A DNA stretch of 21,360 nucleotides from a virus (lineage: Duplodnaviria; Heunggongvirae; Uroviricota; Caudoviricetes): the IMG/VR virus record IMGVR_UViG_2778261246_000002, one strand, 5' to 3'. The position numbers were made by a program, and so were the translations under genes. Positions 929-21,200 of this stretch are shown here, piece by piece (position 1 is the stretch's first letter; each line of letters starts with the position of its first letter). The notes below the pieces were generated by a model. It had not been told where the DNA came from. It searched no databases and saw only the letters and a program-made list of their open reading frames with translations.

Positions 929-1123
929 TTATCCTTTTGGTTCAATACCGCGCCGTAGCAGCTCTTTGCGCCCTAACTCTTTAAGCCAGTTGGCAAGGCT
1001 TACCCCATCGTTACTGGCTTCGTTATCAAACTGCTCCTTCAATTCAGGAACTATGCGCATATGGAACGGTGGGGCCTTTCCTGTGCCTTTTTGTTTTTTA
1101 TCGCGCTTAATAACCGTTGACAT
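929..1123 (-). CDS. Arc/Mnt-family ribbon-helix-helix DNA-binding protein (64 aa), probable repressor
   Basis: PFHMRIVPELKEQFDNEASNDGVSLANWLKEL matches the Arc/Mnt beta-strand plus helix pattern (compare Mnt PHFNFRMPMEVREKLKFRAEANGRSMNSELLQIV). Its start codon abuts the palindromic operator. Confidence 0.65.
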   Translation of the reverse strand: MSTVIKRDKKQKGTGKAPPFHMRIVPELKEQFDNEASNDGVSLANWLKELGRKELLRRGIEPKG

Positions 1124-1168: not shown

Positions 1169-1458
1169 TAACATGTGTGCATTTAAAAACGCAACGCCCC
1201 GCAGTGCGGGAACACATGCAGGGCGTCTAACCACCAACGATAGCAACAGTATCGAGGTAGCTATGAGAAATCATACCACACACCCGCAAGGGCGGGACTC
1301 GCACAACCTGAATAAATTCACTTGGCGCTTTATCGCCCTGAGTGCGGCTAAACCGCGCATGCTTACCATCGTGGTCACCAGCGAGCAGGAAGACCGCCAG
1401 CAATCCCCAACTGGCTGCGTGATGATATTCGCCGCCCGTATTCGTCAGGAGGTGTGCC

Positions 1459-1683
1459 ATGAATGATCTTTATTTTAAAGTGCTGACACATGCTGAAAAC
1501 GCGCTCGTTTGTGGCAAAAATATGCGAGAAATCTTATCAACCTGGCTTGATGGGACAACAAATGCGGAACACGATGAACGGGATGCTAATTTAGCTGGAG
1601 CGTTAATTACGTTACTTGATCCTGTCATCAAAGAGCTGGATGAAGCTATAAAAATACACGACCAGAGCTATACCGGAGAATAA
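1459..1683 (+). CDS. Hypothetical acidic protein (74 aa), first clearly supported gene of the rightward operon
   Basis: AGGAGG 8 nt upstream of the ATG; 3 nt from the next ORF. No family recognised. Confidence 0.55.
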   Translation: MNDLYFKVLTHAENALVCGKNMREILSTWLDGTTNAEHDERDANLAGALITLLDPVIKELDEAIKIHDQSYTGE

Positions 1684-1686
1684 AAA

Positions 1687-1974
1687 ATGAAAAATAAATT
1701 TTCTGGCTTTATTGCCAGCGGTCAAACTCATTCAAAAATCAGCCTTGGGGATATTTTCAAAGACAGCTATGGCTATCGGGTAAAGATTATTTCGGTTGAT
1801 GATCGTCGTGTCTCTTATTTGCGTGATGGTTATGATTTTGAATGTGTTATGCCGCGTCAGCAGTTCGAAAGAGATTTCATTCTGGTAAAAAATTGCAAGA
1901 CAGATAATCAGAGGCGTGCCGCAGGCTATATCCGTAAAATTCGGGCAATGTTAGTTGCCGGAGGTAACAAATGA
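1687..1974 (+). CDS. Hypothetical protein (95 aa)
   Basis: GGAGA 7 nt upstream of the ATG; stop overlaps the primase start (ATGA). No family recognised. Confidence 0.55.
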   Translation: MKNKFSGFIASGQTHSKISLGDIFKDSYGYRVKIISVDDRRVSYLRDGYDFECVMPRQQFERDFILVKNCKTDNQRRAAGYIRKIRAMLVAGGNK

Positions 1975-3791
1975 AACGTGCTCCGAACTTAAAATACCAA
2001 CCGCGCGACAAAATGACGGAAGTCATCATTTTTGCTGGCAGTGATGCCTGGAGCCATGCAAAAGAATGGAATGAATGGGCAGGTAAGCATATTGCAGCAG
2101 ATGATACACCACCAGTCATTCTGGGTACGGAACAACTGGAAAACCTGGATGATATGCAAATTATCGATGAAGGCCGTCATTATGTGCGTGTTTATCGTGC
2201 CGGAAAGATTGCAGAGAAAAGTCTGACGAAGGTTGCGACATTACTTGCTATTGCAGGCGTAAAGGAAGCACGTTGTTACCGTAGCTTTGTTGATCGAGAG
2301 CCTGAAGACTGGACTCCGCGCCTTGTCGGCCTAAAAGCTGAAGCGGAGCATGGGGAAAGTCTGGTGATTGAACTGCCAGTGAAGAAGGCAGAGCGCAAAA
2401 ATGACGAGCGTGCTTCATCTTTGGCGTTGAATCAGATGGGGGCCAGCCAGCGCGGTGAAGTTCTCCTTGCACATTACGGCGGCGAACTGGCAATCAATGC
2501 CGACTCTGACACCGTTCATCATTACAACGGCGTTGTATGGGAGCCGGTTCAGGATAAAGAGTTACAGCGTGCTATGGCGCAGATTTTCATTGATGCGGAG
2601 ATCAGCTATTCGCAGAACGCTATTAAATCGGCGGTAGATACCATGAAGTTAAGTTTGCCTGTAATGGGGAATACAGCCCGTAACCTGATTGGATTCAGTA
2701 ACGGGGTATTTGATACCAGAACTGGTAATTTTCGGGAGCATAACAAAAACGACTGGTTGTTAATTGCCAGTGAATTACCTTTCAGCCCACCAGCAGAGGG
2801 GGAAACGCTGGCAACACATGCGCCGAATTTCTGGAAGTGGTTGCGCCGTTCGGTGGCTGAGAATGACCGCAAGGCAGATCGCGTACTGGCGGCATTATTC
2901 ATGGTGCTGGCGAACCGGTACGACTGGCAGTTATTCATTGAGGTAACAGGGCCGGGGGGAAGTGGTAAAAGTGTGATGGCGGAGATTTGCACCATGCTGG
3001 CGGGTAAGGCTAATACAGTATCAGCAAGCATGAAGGCGCTGGAAGATGCAAGGGAACGTGCGTTAGTGGTTGGCTTTTCGCTGATTATCATGCCGGATAT
3101 GACCCGCTACGCTGGTGATGGGGCAGGGATTAAGGCCATTACAGGCGGTGACAAGGTGGCAATTGACCCGAAACACAAAGCCCCCTATTCAACGCGTATT
3201 CCGGCAGTAGTGCTGGCGGTTAACAATAACGCCATGTCATTCAGTGACCGCAGCGGGGGGATCTCACGTCGTCGGGTGATATTCAATTTTTCGGAAGTTG
3301 TACCGGAGAACGAACGCGATTCGATGCTGGCGGAAAAAATAGAAGGTGAGCTGGCGGTAGTGATTCGCCATCTGCTTACACGGTTTGCTGATCAGGACGA
3401 AGCCAGACGCCTGTTATATGAGCAGCAGAAATCTGAAGAAGCACTGGCGATAAAGCGAGAGGGGGATTCGCTGGTGGACTTCTGCGGCTATCTCATGGCA
3501 TCGGTAATGTGTGATGGCCTGTTAGTGGGTAATGCTGAAATTGTGCCATTCAGCCCACGCAGGTATCTCTATCATGCCTATCTGGCTTATATGAGGGCAC
3601 ATGGGTTTGGTAAACCTGTAACACTGACGCGCTTCGGTAAAGATATGCCGGGGGCAATGGCGGAATATGGCAGGGAGTATATGAAACGGAAAACGAAGCA
3701 CGGTTTGCGTTCAAACGTGACACTGACGGAGGAATCAGAAGACTGGATGCCATCATGTGTATCGGTCACTAATGACGATAGCAAAAATTAA
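1971..3791 (+). CDS. P4-family phage/plasmid primase-helicase (alpha-like replication protein, 606 aa)
   Basis: GGAGG RBS and ATGA coupling to the upstream ORF. Walker A motif TGPGGSGKS in a D5/P4-alpha-like NTPase region. A long C-terminal region is followed directly by P4-type TGTTCACC iterons. Confidence 0.8.
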   Translation: MKRAPNLKYQPRDKMTEVIIFAGSDAWSHAKEWNEWAGKHIAADDTPPVILGTEQLENLDDMQIIDEGRHYVRVYRAGKIAEKSLTKVATLLAIAGVKEARCYRSFVDREPEDWTPRLVGLKAEAEHGESLVIELPVKKAERKNDERASSLALNQMGASQRGEVLLAHYGGELAINADSDTVHHYNGVVWEPVQDKELQRAMAQIFIDAEISYSQNAIKSAVDTMKLSLPVMGNTARNLIGFSNGVFDTRTGNFREHNKNDWLLIASELPFSPPAEGETLATHAPNFWKWLRRSVAENDRKADRVLAALFMVLANRYDWQLFIEVTGPGGSGKSVMAEICTMLAGKANTVSASMKALEDARERALVVGFSLIIMPDMTRYAGDGAGIKAITGGDKVAIDPKHKAPYSTRIPAVVLAVNNNAMSFSDRSGGISRRRVIFNFSEVVPENERDSMLAEKIEGELAVVIRHLLTRFADQDEARRLLYEQQKSEEALAIKREGDSLVDFCGYLMASVMCDGLLVGNAEIVPFSPRRYLYHAYLAYMRAHGFGKPVTLTRFGKDMPGAMAEYGREYMKRKTKHGLRSNVTLTEESEDWMPSCVSVTNDDSKN

Positions 3792-3804
3792 ACTTATGGA
3801 ATAA

Positions 3805-4027
3805 CTGTTCACCACTGTTCACCCTGTCATAAATATCTTTTATATCAGTATATTATAGGGTGAACAGTTATTTATGAACTGTTCACCAAACTATTCACTG
3901 TTCACCTTTTTGATTGTTTATTGAGCTTCAAGGGTGAACAGTGGTGAACAGTTGGTGAATAGTTTTTGTGAAACTGTTCACCCATTAACATTATGAATTA
4001 AAAGAGAAAATATCAAAAGGTGAACAG
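3805..4027. repeat. Iteron cluster, probable satellite origin of replication (P4 ori-type TGTTCACC repeats)
   Basis: At least 9 copies of CTGTTCACC / GGTGAACAG in both orientations (3805-3813, 3815-3823, 3859-3867, 3879-3887, 3898-3906, 3933-3941, 3943-3951, 3974-3982, 4019-4027), plus degenerate copies, in AT-rich non-coding DNA just after the primase gene. Confidence 0.8.
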
Positions 4028-4078
4028 GTGAAGGGTTAAAACGCAAAAATTTTAATTTACTGCTGTGAGATAAAGCCT

Positions 4079-4324
4079 ATGACAGCGAAGCACACAAAAA
4101 AATCACAATCGCACGCCCTTGATTTGACGGAACACTGGTTAAGGGTGTCGATAAAAATCATCGACCGCAACGCCGGGGAAGGATACGCGAAAGCACATCC
4201 CGAACTGATTAGCGCATTCATGACAACGGCGGCTGCAAACTTTGCCACTCTGACCGAACGGGAGATTGCTGAAGCGGAGGAAGTGACAACAATCAATATT
4301 AAGTCCGGAGAGCAGGCAGCATGA
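4079..4324 (+). CDS. Hypothetical protein (81 aa), translationally coupled to ssb
   Basis: Stop overlaps the ssb start (ATGA at 4321-4324). Weak RBS, no family recognised. Confidence 0.4.
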   Translation: MTAKHTKKSQSHALDLTEHWLRVSIKIIDRNAGEGYAKAHPELISAFMTTAAANFATLTEREIAEAEEVTTINIKSGEQAA

Positions 4325-4770
4325 CGGCGCAAATATCAGTTTACGGGCGGTTGGTGGACGACCCGCAGACAAAACAGACCAGCAAGGGCACCCCCATGAC
4401 GCTGGCGCGTATGGCGGTATCACTGCCCTGCAGTCAGTCGGATGACGGTCAGGCGACGATGTGGTTATCTGTCCTGGCGTTTGGCAGACAAGCCGACGCG
4501 CTGGCAAAGCATCACAAAGGCGAACTCCTGAGCGTGGCGGGTAATATGCAGGTGAGCCAGTGGACTGGACAGAACGGTGAAACGCGGCAGGGCTGGCAGG
4601 TTATCGCAGACAGCGTAATCAGTGCGCGAACGGTGCGACCGGGCGGCAAAAAAGGTCAACAGGGTCAGGCTACTGACGCACTGAACAGAGCAAAACAACA
4701 GGCAGATCAGCAAGGAAGCCATCCACCAGTGGGAGATAATGAACAATGGGGAGATGATATTCCGTTTTAA
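4321..4770 (+). CDS. ssb: Single-stranded DNA-binding protein (149 aa)
   Basis: OB-fold SSB-like N-terminus (MTAQISVYGRLVDDPQ..), Gly/Gln-rich linker and the SSB acidic tail ending DDIPF. Confidence 0.85.
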   Translation: MTAQISVYGRLVDDPQTKQTSKGTPMTLARMAVSLPCSQSDDGQATMWLSVLAFGRQADALAKHHKGELLSVAGNMQVSQWTGQNGETRQGWQVIADSVISARTVRPGGKKGQQGQATDALNRAKQQADQQGSHPPVGDNEQWGDDIPF

Positions 4771-4787
4771 ATATTGCCAATAAAAAA

Positions 4788-4813
4788 GGCCGGAAAAAAA
4801 TAAATTTTCCGGC
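4788..4813. terminator. Hairpin between ssb and the capsid-like gene, possible terminator or module boundary
   Basis: GCCGGAAAA / TTTTCCGGC 9-bp stem with a 7-nt loop. No U-tract on the plus side; TTTTTTATT follows it on the minus strand. Confidence 0.3.
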
Positions 4814-4987
4814 ATGCTACATAAATCCCGACCAAAGGGAGTGAAGATATTAACACTAATTATCCGCGCTGAAGTTGTTATCCCAAAACTTTATACAACA
4901 TTGCACTCGGTTGCATGTATTCGCATGACAAATATCGGTGATAGCATATATCCACAATTATTTTTAATGAATGCAAAGAGGATGCGT

Positions 4988-6028
4988 ATGGTTGATTTAT
5001 ATTCGCCTACCCAGCTTGTACAGGTGGTTAATGCTGTAGATGTACAAAAACAACTAAATGCGTTGTTTACCAGTTTGTTTTTTACTCGCTCGGTAATGTT
5101 TGAATCGCGCGATATTATTCTTGATACAATCGACGATCCAAATATCCCAATTGCAGCGTTTTGTTCTCCTATGGTGGGTAGTAAAGTTTCACGTGACGAA
5201 GGGTACGAATCAAAAACAATTCGTCCAGGCTATATGAAGCCGAAAAGCAGCATTGATCCAAATAAGTTAGCTGTGCGCCCTGCTGGTGTATCACCTGAGC
5301 AATACAATGCTTTTGGAGCGCGTAATATTAAAGTTAAACAGGCGATTGTAAATCAGGCTAAAGCTATTCGTGCACGTATTGAATGGCTTGCCGTTCAGGC
5401 AATCACAACGGGGAAAAATATCATTGAGGGCGATGGTATTGAACGTTATGAGCTGGACTGGAATATTAAACCACAAAATATCATCACTCAGTCTGGCGGT
5501 GCTGAGTGGTCAGGTAAGGATAAAGAAACTTTTGATCCAAATGATGATATTGAGAGCTACGCAGAATTTAGTGAGGGCGTCACTAATATCATCATTATGG
5601 GCGGTAATGTATGGAAGAAATACCGTTCATTCAGAGCGATAAAAGAGGCTCTGGATACCCGTCGTGGTTCTAATTCCGAACTGGAAACGGCTCTTAAAGA
5701 CCTTGGTGATTCGGTGAGTTTTAAAGGGTATATGGGCGATGTTGCGATTGTTGTATACAGCGGGCGTTATACCGACGAGGACGGAACTGAAAAACATTTC
5801 CTTGATCCTGATTTGATGGTGCTTGGCAATACGGCTCTTCAGGGGATTGTCGCCTATGGCGGTATTCAGGATCCGGAGCTAATCCGAATGGGGCTGACTA
5901 AAGCCGAACTTGCACCGAAAAACTATATTGTGCCTGGTGATCCGGCTATTGAATATGTGCAGACACATTCAGCACCACAGCCAATACCGGCCCGCATCAA
6001 TCGTTTTGTTACCGTTCGCATTGGCTAA
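4988..6028 (+). CDS. Diverged lambda-gpE-like major capsid protein (HK97-fold MCP paralog, ~346 aa)
   Basis: Aligns along its length with lambda E (roughly 45-50% identity by eye), including an identical LDTRRGSNSELETA block and ITQSGGxEWSxxDKxTxDPxDDIE. I place the start at ATG 4988 (AAGAGGA RBS 5 nt upstream) rather than the ORF-track start at 4814, because MVDLYSPTQL aligns with the lambda E N-terminus. Confidence 0.8.
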   Translation: MVDLYSPTQLVQVVNAVDVQKQLNALFTSLFFTRSVMFESRDIILDTIDDPNIPIAAFCSPMVGSKVSRDEGYESKTIRPGYMKPKSSIDPNKLAVRPAGVSPEQYNAFGARNIKVKQAIVNQAKAIRARIEWLAVQAITTGKNIIEGDGIERYELDWNIKPQNIITQSGGAEWSGKDKETFDPNDDIESYAEFSEGVTNIIIMGGNVWKKYRSFRAIKEALDTRRGSNSELETALKDLGDSVSFKGYMGDVAIVVYSGRYTDEDGTEKHFLDPDLMVLGNTALQGIVAYGGIQDPELIRMGLTKAELAPKNYIVPGDPAIEYVQTHSAPQPIPARINRFVTVRIG

Positions 6029-6037
6029 GGGGGAGCA

Positions 6038-6379
6038 ATGGCTACTCATTACACTGAACTCATGGCTGGCACTGAAGCACTGGTGACTACGCTGGGGATA
6101 TTTTCAGCTAATAAAGGGGTAATTCCTGCATTTACGCCACTGATGCAGGAAGATGCAACAGGTGCACTGGTGGTATGGGATGGTTCGAGCGTAGGTAAAG
6201 CGGTTTATGTTTCCGCTGTACAAATCGACACCGCGAAAAAAACACAGGCTCAGGTCTATAAGACAGGTGTCTTAAATGTTGATGCTCTGAACTGGCCTGA
6301 GTCTGTAAAAGAACTGTCAGTAAAGATTGCAGCGTTTGTTGGCTCAGGTATTTCTGTTCAGCCGCTGGCTCGTGTGTAA
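6038..6379 (+). CDS. Lambda-gpD-like head decoration protein (113 aa)
   Basis: PAFTPLMQEDATGALVVWDGSSVGKAV..AAFVGSGISVQ aligns with lambda gpD [46 protein letters not shown] RBS; starts 10 nt after the capsid-like gene. Confidence 0.75.
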   Translation: MATHYTELMAGTEALVTTLGIFSANKGVIPAFTPLMQEDATGALVVWDGSSVGKAVYVSAVQIDTAKKTQAQVYKTGVLNVDALNWPESVKELSVKIAAFVGSGISVQPLARV

Positions 6380-6390
6380 AGGGGGATACA

Positions 6391-6774
6391 ATGCAGAATG
6401 ATTACAATGACCTTAAGCCAATTGCCGAAATGATGTACCCGAATCCAGCTGTAGAGGAATTAAAAGCTATCGCTGACAAAATGTGTTTAAGCGAGCGCCT
6501 TGTTGATATGAATCAGGTGATGGAAATTACAACCCTGAGTCGGCGTACACTGCTAAACCTTGAGGCTAGTGGAGAGTTCCCGGAGCGTGTGCAGGTTACG
6601 GAAGGGCGTAAGGCCTGGTATTTAAGTGAAGTGATCGACTGGATAAATAATATTCCTCGCGCTTCTGAATATTGCCGCGTACCTGTCCCAAAAAAGCCAG
6701 ATGCGGCGCTATGCCTCAAGATTGAGCGTGTACGCCGCAATGCACGGGATGGTCGCTATAAGCTGATTGGTTGA
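6391..6774 (+). CDS. AlpA/MerR-like winged-HTH DNA-binding protein (127 aa)
   Basis: MNQVMEITTLSRRTLLNLEASGEFPERVQVTEGRKAWYLSEVIDWIN fits the AlpA/excisionase wHTH pattern, a fold also used by Nu1-type small terminases. Same [8 protein letters not shown]-type RBS as the D-like gene. Ends 20-25 nt before the cos-like segment. Confidence 0.55.
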   Translation: MQNDYNDLKPIAEMMYPNPAVEELKAIADKMCLSERLVDMNQVMEITTLSRRTLLNLEASGEFPERVQVTEGRKAWYLSEVIDWINNIPRASEYCRVPVPKKPDAALCLKIERVRRNARDGRYKLIG

Positions 6775-6794
6775 TGAAATTAGGGCCCGCTCTG

Positions 6795-7019
6795 GCTGGC
6801 GGGTCCTTTCCGGCGATCTGACAGGCTACGGGGCGTCAGGCGCGCAGTTTTTCTCTATTTATGGAAATTTTCCGGTTTAAGGCATTTCCGTTCTTCTTCG
6901 CCGTAACTTTATGTTTTTATTTAAAATACCCCCTGAAAAGAAAGGAAATGACAGGCGCTGAAAACGGGCATTTTGGCCTCTGTCGTTTCCTTTCTCTGTT
7001 TTTGTCCGTGGAATGAACA
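6795..7019 (+). promoter_or_regulatory. Lambda-type cos site (cosQ - cosN - cosB with R3/R2/R1 elements)
   Basis: 6799-6830 matches the lambda right end (GCGGGTCCTTTCCGGCGATCTGACAGGCTACG vs ACGGGTCCTTTCCGGTGATCCGACAGGTTACG). 6831 onward matches the lambda left end through the Nu1 start. The 12-mer at the cosN position is GGGCGTCAGGCG versus lambda GGGCGGCGACCT. R-like elements: CATTTCCGTTCTTC (~6883), inverted AAAGAAAGGAAATGACAGG (~6938), CTGTCGTTTCCTTTCTCTG (~6975). Confidence 0.7.
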
Positions 7020-7214
7020 ATGGAAGTCAACAAAGATCAGCTGGCTGACATTTTGGGCAAGAGTTGTGCAATACTTTTGTCAGACGTAAATATTTTTGAG
7101 GAACATTATTATATTTATGTAATTAGAGATATGTTTGATAGGACTAGAAATAAAGCAGACGCCTTAGTTATGTCAATTGCTGAAATAATAAAGGAAAATA
7201 GCAATGATAAATAG
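7020..7214 (+). pseudogene. Truncated Nu1-type small terminase gene: first ~13 codons fused to unrelated AT-rich sequence
   Basis: MEVNKDQLADILG matches the lambda Nu1 N-terminus MEVNKKQLADIFG. Similarity to lambda ends near 7062, after which the ORF runs through AT-rich DNA to a stop at 7212-7214. Confidence 0.6.
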
Positions 7215-7243
7215 AAAAAAGCGGTCACGCGACCGCTTTTATT
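7215..7243. terminator. Bidirectional rho-independent terminator between converging genes
   Basis: AAAAAA-GCGGTC-acgc-GACCGC-TTTTATT: perfect 6-bp GC stem flanked by an A-tract and a T-tract. Sits between the plus-strand fusion ORF and the minus-strand HEPN gene. Confidence 0.7.
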
Positions 7244-7278
7244 ATTTGCAAGTTATTTTTTTGGCTGGAGATAAACTA

Positions 7279-7827
7279 TTACTGTTCACCAATTTGCTCT
7301 CTAAACTGTGTACTGAACGTATCTAGTTGAGAGACAAATGAATGTGCATTTAAAAATTTATTATAAATCTCTTCAGCTGTGCTTTCTAATACAAAAGTAG
7401 CATAATTATTATGTGCTAATTTATTTCTTAGCTCTCCGATTTCCATAAAATCAGAGATAGACTTGGTCAACTCTGTGCTTGATTTTACCTTCTCAATCAT
7501 AAACTCTTTAAATTTTGGGCCAAAAAAGGAAAAAAACTGGTTTGCATTCCTTTTTTTCCAATCAAAGAGTGTATGATACTGCCTGGTTAGGGCCTTATTA
7601 TCGATAAAATCGTGCGTAAGATTACATTGGCTTGGGTTAAGCATACAATGTATCTTAGTTACAACTAAAGTTTCAAAATAGCTAGCACATGCTAATAGCA
7701 TTACTTTTGAAAATTGTGATTTGTAATCATTAGCAAAACTAATCTCATTATGAGTTAGAAGAAAATCATAATAACACTTATAGTTATTAAACATACTTTC
7801 AATAGAAGTATATCCCATATCCTCCAT
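7279..7827 (-). CDS. HEPN-motif protein (predicted RNase effector, ~182 aa)
   Basis: ELRNKLAHNNY carries an R-x4-H motif as in HEPN domains. I prefer ATG at 7827 (MEDMGY.., GGAGG ~12 nt upstream, 4 nt after the DUF262 stop) over the ORF-track GTG at 7860. AT-rich codon usage. Confidence 0.6.
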   Translation of the reverse strand: MEDMGYTSIESMFNNYKCYYDFLLTHNEISFANDYKSQFSKVMLLACASYFETLVVTKIHCMLNPSQCNLTHDFIDNKALTRQYHTLFDWKKRNANQFFSFFGPKFKEFMIEKVKSSTELTKSISDFMEIGELRNKLAHNNYATFVLESTAEEIYNKFLNAHSFVSQLDTFSTQFREQIGEQ

Positions 7828-7831
7828 TATT

Positions 7832-8995
7832 TTACATTCCCTCCAAAATTGTTCTTGCACGTTCTAGACGTCCAATTACATGCTCTCTTCTTGTTGTTTT
7901 ATCAGTACTAAATGTCAGAAATTCAGGATCATTTTTAAGCTTATCGATGTAATTCACCGTCACTTGTCTTATTTTTAGATCTTTATCTTTAAATGAGTCA
8001 TAAGTTGCAGCATAAAAAATTGACTCAAATAAAGTTATACTCATACGATTCCCACCAGTTCTGAAATTGATTTCATCAATTCCATCAACACTATCCATAA
8101 ATTCATTCCATATATTACTAAATAAAGTTATGTCTTTAGTGTCGTAGTTTTTTGCATAATTTGAGAAATTGTTCAAAAAACCGCTAACTGAGCTTTTGTA
8201 TTGAGATGTAAAAAGGGACATAGCAAATGTGCGCAATATCGCTTCAATATCACTCAATCGCATGTCAACAACATTTTTTGAAAGAATTTTTCTCCATGTC
8301 TTGTTTTCATTCAATGAAACAAGATTTGAAAGAAAGTCTGAGTGATATAAACTCATACGAATTTCTTGAGGAGAAAGGTTCATTCCCCCACTATTTAGGC
8401 GGTTAAATATTTCAAACATTGCACCATCTTCCGAATCTTGTGCAACCGGTTTGATTACCATATTTCGTATGGTTGCCAGATTTAAAGTGGTTTGAAATTC
8501 GTTTAATGTTTCATAGTTTTTCCCATTAAACTTGTTTTTTTGGGTGTCTGATAGACCATCAAGTTTTAGGTTGAACTTTGTGAAGTATTCATCATTGTGA
8601 AGAATGTTTTCTGGAATGTTTCCATTATCTTCAAAGATTTTTCTCAGTTCAGAACGTTTCTCTTTTCTAGGGAATACACCATTTACAAAGTAATAAAGGG
8701 TCATTAATCTCTGCTGACCATCTATCACTAAAAATTCATTTTTATCTTGTTCATATAAAAATATTTGAGGTATAGGAAGGCCTATTAAAAGAGATTCAAT
8801 GAGTTTTGATGCTCGTTTGATATCCCAAACATAATGCCTTTGAAAGTTAGGGATTTTAAAAACTTTTGATTTAATAAAACTTATAATTGTGATTATATTA
8901 AAATCATTGGGCGTAGTAGTAAGTTGAAACTCATCAATTGGATAGGATTCTGGCTCATCCTCGTATTGCTTTTCTTCATAATCTTCTGGTTGCAT
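7832..8995 (-). CDS. DUF262 (ParB/GmrS-like) domain protein (~387 aa)
   Basis: Hallmark motifs FQRHYVW and VIDGQQRLMTL, plus the downstream FEIFNRLNSGGMNLSPQEI element. No His-Me/DUF1524 nuclease motif seen in the C-terminal half. I prefer ATG at 8995 (AAGGA 7 nt upstream) over GTG at 9043. Confidence 0.8.
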   Translation of the reverse strand: MQPEDYEEKQYEDEPESYPIDEFQLTTTPNDFNIITIISFIKSKVFKIPNFQRHYVWDIKRASKLIESLLIGLPIPQIFLYEQDKNEFLVIDGQQRLMTLYYFVNGVFPRKEKRSELRKIFEDNGNIPENILHNDEYFTKFNLKLDGLSDTQKNKFNGKNYETLNEFQTTLNLATIRNMVIKPVAQDSEDGAMFEIFNRLNSGGMNLSPQEIRMSLYHSDFLSNLVSLNENKTWRKILSKNVVDMRLSDIEAILRTFAMSLFTSQYKSSVSGFLNNFSNYAKNYDTKDITLFSNIWNEFMDSVDGIDEINFRTGGNRMSITLFESIFYAATYDSFKDKDLKIRQVTVNYIDKLKNDPEFLTFSTDKTTRREHVIGRLERARTILEGM

Positions 8996-9089
8996 CGTGT
9001 CATCCTTTTTCTTCGTGAATATGGTTTTTAGACAAGTCCTCACTACACATATCTGTATTGCAGAAAGTATTGCAGTGATAGGAGTTGCG

Positions 9090-9125: not shown

Positions 9126-9151
9126 AGTTCTTTCGGGATTGACTCATGTAG

Positions 9152-9940
9152 CCGAAGCATGAGGTGAATCCGCAGATGACCCTGCGTCGCCTGCCGGATG
9201 AAGATCCGCAGAATCTGGCGGACCCGGCTTACCGCCGCCGTCGCATCATCATGCAGAACATGCGAGACGAAGAGCTGGCCATTGCTCAGGTCGAAGAGAT
9301 GCAGGCAGTTTCTGCTGTGCTTAAGGGCAAATACACCATGACCGGTGAAGCCTTCGATCCGGTTGAGGTGGATATGGGCCGCAGTGCGGCGAACAACATC
9401 ACGCAGTCCGGTGGTACGGAGTGGAGCAAGCGTGACAAGTCCACGTATGACCCGACCGACGATATCGAAGCCTATGCGCTGAACGCCAGCGGAGTGGTGA
9501 ATATCATCGTGTTTGATCCGAAAGGCTGGGCGCTGTTCCGTTCCTTCAAAGCCGTCAAGGAGAAGCTGGATACCCGTCGCGGCTCTAATTCCGAGCTGGA
9601 GACAGCGGTAAAAGACCTGGGCGAAGCGGTGTCCTATAAGGGAATGTATGGCGATACGGCGATCGTCGTGTATTCCGGACAGTACGTAGAAAACGACGTC
9701 AAAAAGAACTTCCTGCCGGACAACACGATGGTGCTGGGGAACACTCAGGCACGCGGTCTGCGCACCTATGGCTGCATTCAGGATGCGGACGCACAGCGCG
9801 AAGGTATTAACGCCTCTGCCCGCTACCCGAAAAACTGGGTGACCACCGGCGATCCGGCGCGTGAGTTCACCATGATTCAGTCAGCACCGCTGATGCTGCT
9901 GGCTGACCCTGATGCGTTCGTGTCCGTACAACTGGCGTAA
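9152..9940 (+). pseudogene. E: Lambda major capsid protein E, 3' fragment (codons ~80-341), lacking start and N-terminus
   Basis: In-frame translation from 9152 gives PKHEVNPQMTLRRLPDEDPQNLADPAYRRRRIIMQNMRDEEL..SAPLMLLADPDAFVSVQLA, matching lambda gpE from residue ~80. An in-frame TAG sits at 9149-9151 and upstream DNA is unrelated AT-rich sequence. Confidence 0.85.
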
Positions 9941-18260: not shown

Positions 18261-18281
18261 GTCGTTTATGGAGCGTGAGGA

Positions 18282-21200
18282 ATGGGTAAAGGCAGCAGTA
18301 AGGGGCATACTCCGCGCGAAGCGAAGGACAACCTGAAGTCCACGCAGTTGCTGAGTGTGATCGATGCCATCAGCGAAGGGCCGATTGAAGGTCCGGTGGA
18401 TGGATTAAAAAGCGTGCTGCTGAACAGTACGCCAGTGCTGGACAGTGAGGGGAATACCAACATCTCCGGCGTCACGGTGGTGTTCCGGGCCGGTGAGCAG
18501 GAGCAGACACCGCCGGAGGGATTTGAATCCTCCGGCTCCGAGACGGTGCTGGGTACGGAAGTGAAATACGACACGCCGATCACCCGGACCATCACGTCTG
18601 CAAACATCGACCGTCTGCGCTTTACCTTCGGTGTGCAGGCACTGGTGGAAACCACCTCAAAGGGGGACCGGAATCCATCGGAAGTCCGCCTGCTGGTTCA
18701 GATACAACGTAACGGTGGCTGGGTGACGGAAAAAGACATCACCATTAAGGGCAAAACCACCTCGCAGTATCTGGCTTCGGTGGTGGTGGGTAACCTGCCG
18801 CCGCGCCCGTTTAATATCCGGATGCGCAGGATGACGCCGGACAGCACCACAGACCAGCTGCAGAACAAAACGCTCTGGTCGTCATACACCGAAATCATCG
18901 ATGTGAAACAGTGCTACCCGAACACGGCACTGGTCGGCGTGCAGGTGGACTCGGAGCAGTTCGGCAGCCAGCAGGTGAGCCGTAATTATCATCTTCGCGG
19001 ACGCATTCTGCAGGTGCCGTCGAACTATAACCCGCAGACGCGGCAATACAGCGGTATCTGGGACGGAACGTTTAAGCCAGCATACAGCAACAACATGGCC
19101 TGGTGTCTGTGGGATATGCTGACCCATCCGCGCTACGGCATGGGGAAACGTCTTGGTGCGGCGGATGTGGACAAATGGGCGCTGTATGTCATCGGCCAGC
19201 ATTGCGAGCAGTCGGTGCCGGACGGTTTTGGCGGCACGGAGCCGCGCATCACCTGTAATGCGTACCTGACCACACAGCGTAAGGCGTGGGATGTGCTCAG
19301 TGATTTCTGCTCGGCGATGCGCTGTATGCCGGTATGGAACGGGCAGACGCTGACGTTCGTGCAGGACCGACCGTCGGATAAGGTGTGGACCTATAACCGC
19401 AGTAATGTGGTGATGCCGGATGATGGCGCGCCGTTCCGCTACAGCTTCAGCGCCCTGAAGGACCGCCATAATGCCGTTGAGGTGAACTGGATTGACCCGA
19501 ACAACGGCCAGGAGACGGCGACAGAGCTTGTTGAAGATACGCAGGCCATCGCCCGTTACGGTCGTAACGTCACGAAGATGGATGCCTTTGGCTGTACCAG
19601 CCGGGGGCAGGCACACCGCGCCGGGCTGTGGCTGATTAAAACGGAGCTGCTGGAAACGCAGACCGTGGACTTCAGCGTGGGTGCTGAAGGGCTTCGCCAT
19701 GTACCGGGCGATGTCATTGAAATCTGCGATGATGACTATGCCGGTATCAGCACCGGTGGTCGCGTGCTGGCGGTGAACAGCCAGACCCGGACGCTGACGC
19801 TCGACCGTGAAATCACGCTGCCATCCTCCGGTACCACGCTGATAAGCCTGGTTGACGGAAGTGGTAATCCGGTCAGCGTGGAGGTTCAGTCCGTCACCGA
19901 CGGACTTAAGGTGAAAGTGAACCGGGTTCCTGACGGCGTTGCAGAATACAGTGTGTGGGGGCTGAAGTTGCCGACGTTGCGTCAGCGCCTGTTCCGCTGT
20001 GTGAGTATCCGTGAGAACGATGACGGCACGTATGCCATCACTGCCGTGCAGCATGTACCGGAAAAAGAAGCCATCGTGGATAACGGGGCGCACTTTGACG
20101 GCGACCAGAGCGGCACGGTGAATGGTGTCACGCCGCCAGCGGTGCAGCACCTGACTGCCGAAGTCACCGCAGACAGCGGGGAATATCAGGTGCCGGCGCG
20201 CTGGGACACGCCGAAGGTGGTGAAGGGGGTGAGCTTTATGCTTCGCCTGACCGTGGCAGCGGATGACGGCAGTGAGCGGCTGGTCAGCACGGCCCGGACG
20301 ACGGAAACCACATACCGCTTCACGCAACTGGCGCTGGGACGGTACACGCTGACAGTCCGGGCGGTAAATGCGTGGGGACAGCAGGGCGATCCGGCGTCGG
20401 TATCGTTCCGGATTGCCGCACCGGTAGCACCGTCGCGGATTGAGCTGACGCCGGGCTATTTTCAGATAACTGCCACGCCGCATCTTGCGGTTTATGACCC
20501 GACAGTACAGTTTGAGTTCTGGTTCTCGGAAAAACGGATTGCTGGTATCAGGCAGGTTGAAACCACAGCGCGCTATCTTGGCACGGCGCTGTACTGGATA
20601 GCCGCCAGTATCAATATCAGGCCGGGCCATGATTATTATTTTTACGTTCGCAGTGTGAACACCGTTGGCAAATCGGCATTCGTGGAGGCTGTTGGTCAGC
20701 CGAGTGATGATGCATCCGGCTATCTGGATTTTTTCAAAGGCGAGATAGGGAAAACCCATCTGGCTCAGGAGCTGTGGACGCAGATTGATAACGGTCAGCT
20801 TGCGCCTGACCTGGCTGAAATCAGAACGTCCATTACGGATGTCAGCAATGAAATCACGCAGACCGTCAATAAGAAACTGGAAGACCAGAGTGCGGCAATT
20901 CAGCAGATACAGAAGGTTCAGGTTGATACAAATAATAACCTGAACAGCATGTGGGCTGTGAAGCTGCAGCAGATGCAGGACGGACGCCTTTATATCGCGG
21001 GTATTGGTGCCGGTATTGAGAACACCCCTGACGGCATGCAGAGTCAGGTGCTGCTGGCGGCGGACAGGATTGCGATGGTTAATCCTGCGAATGGCAACAC
21101 AAAACCGATGTTTGTTGGTCAGGGCGATCAGATATTCATGAACGACGTGTTCCTGAAACGCCTGACGGCCCCCACCATTACCAGCGGTGGAAATCCACCG

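Follow-up and report, generated by a model that had tools for sequence, protein, structure and literature searches.

EcCICFT073, the model Gram-negative PICI, carries a pri-rep gene and an ori that together enable a plasmid to replicate autonomously in E. coli; it is the only element for which such replication by pri-rep plus ori has been demonstrated (Fillol-Salom et al. 2018; PMC6092414). The region equivalent to the repeat array described below is required for replication of that plasmid, and deletion of pri-rep cuts transfer about 100-fold (PMC6092414). For helper-embedded PICIs (HE-PICIs), which include the 11capE island of E. coli NRG857c, Tommasini, Mageeney and Williams (2023; PMC10111431) assigned the corresponding module to a "Replication zone" and called its protein a primase, but did not dissect it. 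Two further points of comparison are phage P4, whose alpha protein has a Zn-ribbon/Toprim primase (Pfam Zn_Ribbon_Prim at residues 30-66 and Toprim_3 at residues 210-299), and vB_KppS-Ant (LR881103), a cf-PICI-like "Escherichia phage".

The window, i.e., the whole stretch of 21,360 nucleotides analyzed here (IMG/VR record IMGVR_UViG_2778261246_000002), contains a replication module at 1687-4770. The element that carries it is not a P4-like satellite but an HE-PICI of the 11capE type, which interrupts a lambdoid prophage within its capsid gene. Positions 1309-8000 are 99.5% identical to 11capE of NRG857c, and the two islands share their site, a lambda-E-like capsid gene with FI and tail genes downstream. 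The first ~1.3 kb of the window departs from NRG857c and matches other strains. The right junction lies within the window, where an attR core near 9150-9159 is followed by the 3' portion of the E-like gene of the helper (9164-9940). Int and alpA lie at the left junction, which falls outside the window and is seen in the near-identical islands of NRG857c and Res13; int, alpA and pri are co-oriented within a prophage late gene, as in other HE-PICIs. The first-pass annotation had assigned the module and the tail cluster to separate mobile elements, and the split capsid gene bears this out. It had also called the arrangement typical of both P4-like satellites and Gram-negative PICIs. Only the second affiliation stands; sid, delta and psu of P4 are all absent from the remainder of the island. 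The module is ordinary, common and largely already described: it was found in 809 of 5,426 complete E. coli genomes, 502 of which cover at least 80% of it.

Gene order is that of EcCICFT073: a DUF4222 gene, pri-rep, the origin, a small ORF and ssb, then capsid genes, with the difference that EcCICFT073 occupies a chromosomal site and this island a prophage capsid gene. All four replication-module genes are on the plus strand, and the coordinates given for the module in the first-pass annotation are all correct. The DUF4222 gene (1687-1974, 95 aa; PF13973, E 3.4e-22), whose stop overlaps the start of the next gene (ATGA), is also directly 5' of Pri-Rep in EcCICFT073 and several related loci. 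Downstream of the origin, the 81-aa gene (4079-4324; phrog_1231) has no Pfam match; it is 83% identical to the EcCICFT073 gene in the equivalent position, and most relatives of the module outside E. coli lack it. Its end overlaps the ssb start at 4321, again through ATGA, and the two genes are translationally coupled, as previously described. The 149-aa satellite-encoded SSB (4321-4770; OB-fold domain PF00436, E 2.6e-16) scores 68.3 against TIGR00621 (cut-off 53.95), shares 68% identity with the EcCICFT073 SSB, and ends in WGDDIPF with the canonical acidic DDIPF tip. P4 has no ssb gene. vB_KppS-Ant lacks both the small ORF and ssb after its origin and has a larger set of capsid, portal and terminase genes.

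The central gene (1971-3791) encodes the 606-aa Walker A protein that had been singled out earlier, a P4 alpha-like initiator/helicase ("Pri-Rep") matched by Pfam D5_N, DUF5906 and Pox_D5; RefSeq annotates the same 1,821-bp gene. It comprises a D5_N domain (residues 163-292, positions 2457-2846; PF08706, E 1.4e-13), confirming a match that the first-pass annotation had suggested looking for; an SF3 helicase ATPase core (residues 326-434, positions 2946-3272; PF19263, E 1.3e-10, with a weaker PPV_E1_C match) whose Walker A motif, GPGGSGKS, translates as residues 327-334 (2949-2972); and a C-terminal origin-binding domain (residues 498-594, positions 3462-3752; PF03288) that matches the P4 alpha C-terminal domain (PDB 1KA8) at E 1.9e-24 and 6.8e-26. 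BLAST aligns residues 149-596 to the helicase and origin-binding domains of P4 alpha (323-771) at 51% identity. EcCICFT073 Pri-Rep has equal architecture, N-terminal domain included, and is 44% identical over its full length (residues 1-593), and the vB_KppS-Ant initiator is 74% identical, again with the N-terminal domain. A match to the P4-family primase C-terminal model had likewise been anticipated, and here the protein is sub-threshold: its TIGR01613 ("primase_Cterm") score is 95.1, below the cut-off of 108.7, which P4 alpha reaches exactly and EcCICFT073 Pri-Rep exceeds at 110.2. The shortfall is marginal, since what TIGR01613 models is the helicase region and not the catalytic domain of primase. 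Based on these homologies, we propose that the protein acts as an SF3 helicase/initiator that is specific for its origin and related to P4 alpha.

Immediately 3' of the initiator gene is a dense cluster of the octamer TGTTCACC, downstream of its initiator gene as P4 crr is of alpha. The window holds 12 copies where 0.68 are expected by chance, a number reached in no shuffle. Nine exact copies lie between 3806 and 4026 (221 bp) in the orientations + + - + + - - + -, and degenerate copies occur at 3892 (TATTCACT), 3954 (TATTCACC) and 4027 (GGTGAAG); the effective repeat unit is 10-11 nt, (A/C)ACTGTTCACC. GC content is 31-35% over 3750-4100 and about 50% in the flanking genes. These values agree with the earlier description of at least nine octamers, in both orientations, within ~220 bp of AT-rich DNA. 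The first-pass annotation had also taken the octamer for the P4 ori/crr iteron, and comparison with the P4 record (NC_001609) gives an exact match to its annotated "ori type 1 repeat", of which P4 has 11 copies across ori and crr.

The cluster is collinear with both of these P4 elements. Its left half (3803-3906) consists of two direct repeats 10 bp apart, an AT-rich spacer of ~35 bp, one inverted repeat and three direct repeats; it is collinear with the P4 ori core, aligning to P4 9285-9430 (reverse complement), and to the leftward portion of both the EcCICFT073 and the vB_KppS-Ant origin. The right half (3933-4037) has three inverted repeats, one direct repeat, an AT-rich spacer and two inverted repeats; it is collinear with one 120-bp P4 crr unit and aligns to both crr units. 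As in P4, type 1 repeats in both orientations (nine copies) thus stand beside AT-rich DNA. In P4, however, ori and crr are ~4.5 kb apart and replication needs both, whereas in the window and in the NRG857c island the ori-like and crr-like parts are adjacent in one contiguous cluster. The layout is also that of Gram-negative PICI replicons such as EcCICFT073, in which pri-rep is followed by repeat sets flanking AT-rich DNA. The vB_KppS-Ant origin has eight exact copies of TGTTCACC in matching positions; repeat positions are kept while spacers have diverged. No DnaA box occurs in the origin, and their total in the window is under chance; Rfam at gathering thresholds returned no match in the window. 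Of 2,174 papers matched by a full-text search for TGTTCACC, the 15 listed had no bearing on the origin, most giving it in primer sequences.

Repeat type co-varies with a short segment of the initiator across homologues. The putative specificity segment of the C-terminal domain, at residues ~572-582 (KRKTKHGLRSN), takes the form KR(K/H)TK.G.(R/Q)(S/T)N alongside TGTTCACC repeats, including in P4 alpha, despite only 48% identity across the domain. In EcCICFT073 the repeats are TGTCTACC/TCTCTACC and the C-terminal domain differs to match; TGTCTACC pairs with a 5-residue insertion in that domain, and TGTCCGCC and TGTCCACC pair with further variants of the segment. Repeat type and C-terminal segment vary in this way while the helicase core remains ~90% identical. 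AlphaFold2 (AF2) models the C-terminal domain poorly (mean pLDDT 50.6), so that the segment can be assigned only tentatively to a beta-hairpin "wing". The co-variation itself implies continuing selection on the interaction between the repeats and the DNA-binding domain.

We consider it probable that this locus is the replication zone of an 11capE-type HE-PICI, in which an alpha-like initiator acts on its own repeats and priming is provided in trans. The C-terminal domain would bind the ~12 (A/C)ACTGTTCACC repeats directly 3' of its own gene, and the ATPase core would then assemble on the repeats and melt the AT-rich spacers, allowing the excised island to replicate. The origin combines a P4-ori-like and a P4-crr-like half in a single 235-bp block. 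Priming would most likely fall to host DnaG or another factor, and the island SSB, through its DDIPF tip, and perhaps the N-terminal domain may help to recruit host replisome proteins.

Whether the initiator could instead prime for itself, as P4 alpha does, turns on its N-terminal domain (residues 1-125, positions 1971-2345), an alpha/beta fold that stands in place of alpha's Zn-ribbon/Toprim primase. The first-pass name "primase-helicase" fits the helicase half of the protein, given D5_N, the SF3 ATPase and the identity to alpha, but Zn_Ribbon_Prim and Toprim_3 have no counterpart. Residues 1-148 have no Pfam match at E<=1, Zn-ribbon and Toprim included, and no BLAST match to P4 alpha, whose residues 1-322 show no similarity, and no catalytic motif is recognizable in the domain. 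It measures ~130 residues against the ~300 of the primase part of alpha. In 38 homologues, the positions of the Toprim Glu and DxD are invariant Ala-Gly and Arg-Ala-Gly, and the only conserved acidic residues are E17, E35 and D44; alpha's EGYATA reads FAGSDAW in the initiator, its Glu replaced by an invariant Ala. Profile-profile comparison of 38 N-terminal-domain sequences with 38 Toprim_3 domains of alpha homologues was not significant (1% probability). The register that it returned agreed with our manual register, an agreement that carries no evidential weight. A phmmer search of 1.84 billion representatives with the N-terminal domain retrieved only 86 matches, all N-terminal, with no link to known primases. 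A Foldseek search of viral structures (BFVD) with the model of the domain gave one uncharacterized 112-aa match plus scattered weak Toprim matches. For a divergent but active primase speak a confident model (pLDDT ~90) and conservation from Enterobacteriaceae to Haemophilus, so that an unrecognized primase could be the domain's identity. Its nearest structural neighbors, though weak, are DnaG-type Toprim primases. Moreover, a relative with 80% identity in the core (L013) has a genuine Toprim_3 N terminus in exactly this place, joined at the identical ALNQMGASQRG junction, and EcCICFT073 pri-rep-ori needs no helper to replicate in E. coli. With no Pfam match and only a weak Toprim-like fold, the primase half of the name is not supported, and a complete, self-priming P4-type primase-helicase seems unlikely. 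Rather, the intrinsic primase appears from sequence to have been lost, the N-terminal domain possibly being a Toprim derivative minus its acidic catalytic residues; given no Zn-ribbon/Toprim primase, priming is most likely in trans. Against this reading, Strack et al. (1992) reportedly found primase-null mutants of P4 alpha unable to replicate; an alpha-type initiator without primase would then need a compensating mechanism.

The array could alternatively be mainly a regulatory or copy-control site for the initiator, e.g., a looping or handcuffing site like crr or an operator for the small gene and ssb, with replication starting elsewhere. Its right half is homologous to P4 crr, a cis-acting helper region and not a start site, and the small ORF and ssb lie directly downstream. 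Yet the left half aligns to the P4 ori core itself, neither the window nor the complete NRG857c island has a second repeat cluster or separate ori, and the equivalent region of EcCICFT073 is needed for plasmid replication. Promoter and terminator counts over 3700-4900 are at chance level; no promoter-like site falls within 3803-4037, and the nearest candidates are downstream, at ~4774-4886. We regard a mainly regulatory array as improbable. Less credible still is that the module is a relic with functionless repeats and gene, the island being copied passively with its helper. Such copying is feasible, as the authors who described HE-PICIs report that excision is followed by replication of the entire composite prophage (PMC10111431), but every ORF of the module is intact, the module is widespread among E. 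coli genomes, repeats are conserved where spacers diverge, and the matched variation of repeats and DNA-binding domain implies that selection continues. An initiator acting on its own adjacent origin remains our preferred reading.

For annotation, this stretch should be read as the replication zone of a prophage-embedded satellite and not as the prophage's own replication system, and the protein owes its database label, "DNA primase family protein", solely to the helicase part. Beyond what has been described for these islands, our comparison makes two modest additions: the co-variation of repeat type with the DNA-binding domain and the apparent loss of the intrinsic primase. The first amounts to a straightforward code for origin specificity that can be tested. 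This allele has the same repeats as P4, and the putative recognition segment is conserved; P4-like satellites and this PICI allele may therefore recognize each other's origins, with cross-activation or incompatibility as the predicted cross-talk. As for the second, if primase loss is real, these E. coli satellites, which are very common, must rely on a primase of the host or the helper, and this dependence would be a possible point of interaction among satellite, helper and host. The N-terminal domain may be a dead Toprim derivative that serves as an adaptor recruiting host primase or helper replication proteins. Within the satellite-initiator family, it may have taken the place of a genuine Toprim primase at the fixed ALNQMGASQRG junction, giving priming unlike that of P4. 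We put these two readings, an adaptor in place of the primase and origin recognition shared with P4-like satellites, forward tentatively and think them somewhat doubtful.

Finally, a candidate insertion after tail gene I was considered and rejected: the ORFs on the minus strand at 18266-20759 are spurious, lying antisense within a lambda-J-like gene that itself continues past the end of the window.

The replication module centers on an ORF at 1971-3791 (+), which encodes a 606-aa P4 alpha-like initiator (Pri-Rep) whose residues 327-334, GPGGSGKS, form a Walker A motif. The window contains 12 copies of the octamer TGTTCACC where 0.68 would be expected, and none of the shuffles yielded as many. 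Nine of these copies lie within 3806-4026, in the order + + - + + - - + -, with degenerate copies at 3892, 3954, and 4027; the effective unit of the origin repeat is (A/C)ACTGTTCACC, and GC content is 31-35% in the repeat region versus ~50% for the genes on either side. A small ORF (81 aa; 4079-4324) then shares an ATGA overlap with the start of ssb (4321-4770), which passes Pfam and NCBIfam thresholds and encodes a C-terminal DDIPF. The first-pass annotation of a Walker-A protein, at least nine octamers of both orientations in AT-rich DNA, and a coupled small gene and ssb 3' of the repeats therefore stands.

Likewise, its identification of the octamer as the P4 ori/crr iteron proved exact: the P4 record annotates TGTTCACC as "ori type 1 repeat," with eleven exact copies across ori and crr. 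The left half of the origin (3792-3935) aligns position by position with the P4 ori core on the alpha sense strand, and both feature two direct repeats 10 bp apart, a ~35-bp AT-rich spacer, one inverted repeat, and three direct repeats. The right half aligns to a 120-bp unit of P4 crr. Because the halves correspond to ori and crr and no second repeat cluster was found in the island, the two parts are adjacent here, whereas ori and crr of P4 are ~4.5 kb apart. Earlier work may not have stated explicitly that this origin is the homologue of a joined P4 ori and crr. In the cf-PICI-like element vB_KppS-Ant (LR881103), repeat positions are conserved and spacers divergent. A P4-like element of Erwinia rhapontici (L018) encodes a full Toprim-bearing alpha, its N-terminal part 50% identical to that of P4, and carries TGTTCACC repeats in two distant clusters (52-137 and 6508-6603), as in P4; PICI-type elements, in contrast, have a single cluster.

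The initiator was first described as a "primase-helicase," and the helicase part of that call is well founded. Three Pfam domains are present, namely D5_N (aa 163-292), DUF5906 (the SF3 ATPase; aa 326-434), and Pox_D5 (aa 497-592); aa 149-596 are 51% identical to P4 alpha residues 323-771 (BLASTP; alpha from NC_001609); and aa 498-594 match the alpha C-terminal origin-binding domain as crystallized in 1KA8 (E 1.9e-24). The primase part was not supported. BLASTP returned no match between aa 1-148 and P4 alpha, and while P4 alpha, as a control, yields Zn_Ribbon_Prim (aa 30-66) and Toprim_3 (aa 210-299) before the same three domains, the first 160 residues of the window protein have no Pfam match even at E<=1. 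For TIGR01613 ("primase_Cterm"), the protein scores 95.1 versus a cut-off of 108.7, which is exactly the score of P4 alpha. Since TIGR01613 models the helicase region and aa 1-160 match no Pfam family, the "primase" label, in databases as in the first-pass annotation, has no primase domain behind it.

An intrinsic primase in this protein is also unlikely from the N-terminal domain itself. Residues 1-125 give a confident model (pLDDT ~90) of beta-alpha-beta-alpha-beta-alpha-beta topology; profile-profile comparison with Toprim_3 domains was not significant, and searching a viral structure library gained nothing. Conservation across 38 homologues peaks at Ala22-Gly23, following strand 1, and at Ala77-Gly78, following strand 3, the places of the Toprim catalytic Glu and DxD; the only conserved acidic residues are E17, E35, and D44. 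The family is small (86 among 1.84 billion representatives), always N-terminal, and borne by several helicase cores from E. coli, Klebsiella, Raoultella, Kluyvera, and Haemophilus. An Enterobacter locus (L013) has a core 80% identical to that of the window and a genuine Toprim_3 domain at its N terminus; Serratia relatives have a third kind. ALNQMGASQRG (window ~2410-2440; aa 148-158) is a fixed recombination junction across related loci L013-L017. It is here that the three unrelated N-terminal modules meet nearly identical helicase cores. Replacement of the P4 primase domain by a non-catalytic-looking module may, likewise, not have been spelled out before.

Repeats 3' of the gene fall into several types among 72 related loci (TGTTCACC, TGTCTACC, TGTCCGCC, TGTCCACC, and TGTGCACC), and a C-terminal domain segment at aa ~572-582 varies in step with them. 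KR(K/H)TK.G.(R/Q)(S/T)N is common to all TGTTCACC elements, including P4 alpha with only 48% domain identity, and the TGTCTACC group features a 5-residue insertion irrespective of N terminus; the helicase core is ~90% identical between groups. Because repeat type tracks this segment, the pattern supports a cognate interaction between domain and repeats. The AF2 model of the C-terminal domain was too poor to place this segment confidently on a "wing."

The model Gram-negative PICI, EcCICFT073, encodes a Pri-Rep with the same domains (44% full-length identity), a small ORF 83% and an SSB 68% identical to those of the window, and an origin of the same layout but with TGTCTACC/TCTCTACC repeats. 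A plasmid bearing its rep and ori is maintained in E. coli DH5alpha, and pri-rep deletion reduces island transfer ~100-fold (Fillol-Salom et al., PMC6092414). Most non-E. coli relatives lack the small ORF and ssb; the initiator and its repeats are therefore the minimal conserved unit. Whereas the homologies and co-variation are observed, we infer that the repeats are bound, that DNA is melted, and where primers come from. Most likely, the C-terminal domain would bind the repeats, the SF3 helicase would assemble and melt the AT-rich spacers, primers would be supplied in trans, and the island SSB, with its host-type DDIPF tip, would coat the DNA once unwound, perhaps also recruiting host factors.

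The first 8 kb of the window are 98.8-99.7% identical to E. coli chromosomes. In NRG857c and Res13, the island comprises, in order, an integrase and AlpA-like regulator; a regulatory zone that includes an Icd-like gene; DUF4222, a "DNA primase family protein," small ORF, and ssb; and capsid, decoration-protein, and cargo genes. A split lambda-E-like capsid gene flanks it on both sides, followed by FI and tail genes; in the window, the 3' fragment of this helper gene lies at 9164-9940 and the attR core near 9150-9159. This island is the published helper-embedded PICI "11capE" (Tommasini, Mageeney and Williams 2023, PMC10111431), lodged within the major capsid gene of its helper prophage as that configuration describes, so the replication module and tail cluster belong to different mobile elements, as originally proposed. 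With the satellite type described and the module in 809 of 5,426 complete E. coli genomes, it is an already known member of that type.

The island also has its own E-like capsid and D-like decoration genes (4988-6379), and 3' of these a second AlpA-family regulator gene (6391-6774), additional to the int-adjacent alpA of related islands. The lambda-J-like tail gene is open from 18279 to the window end; minus-strand ORFs antisense to it (18266-20759; 129, 66, and 625 aa) lack family matches and were rejected as spurious. Region 6799-7057, 91-93% identical to the lambdoid phage cos/Nu1 region, is probably the packaging signal of the island. A related island encodes full-length terS in the position of the short ORF at 7020-7214, which may therefore be a truncated small-terminase gene. 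At the right end, two minus-strand cargo genes (7279-9043) encode a RiboL-PSP HEPN protein and a DUF262/GmrSD_N protein matching PADLOC NsnA (E 9e-60) and PD-T4-2_A (1e-38), probably an anti-phage defence pair; other genes occupy this slot in Res13. Finally, three copies of TGTACACC (one base away from the origin repeat), among them the perfect palindrome GGTGTACACC, lie at 1125-1167 between the divergent 929-1123 (minus strand) and Icd-like genes, and may be an operator.
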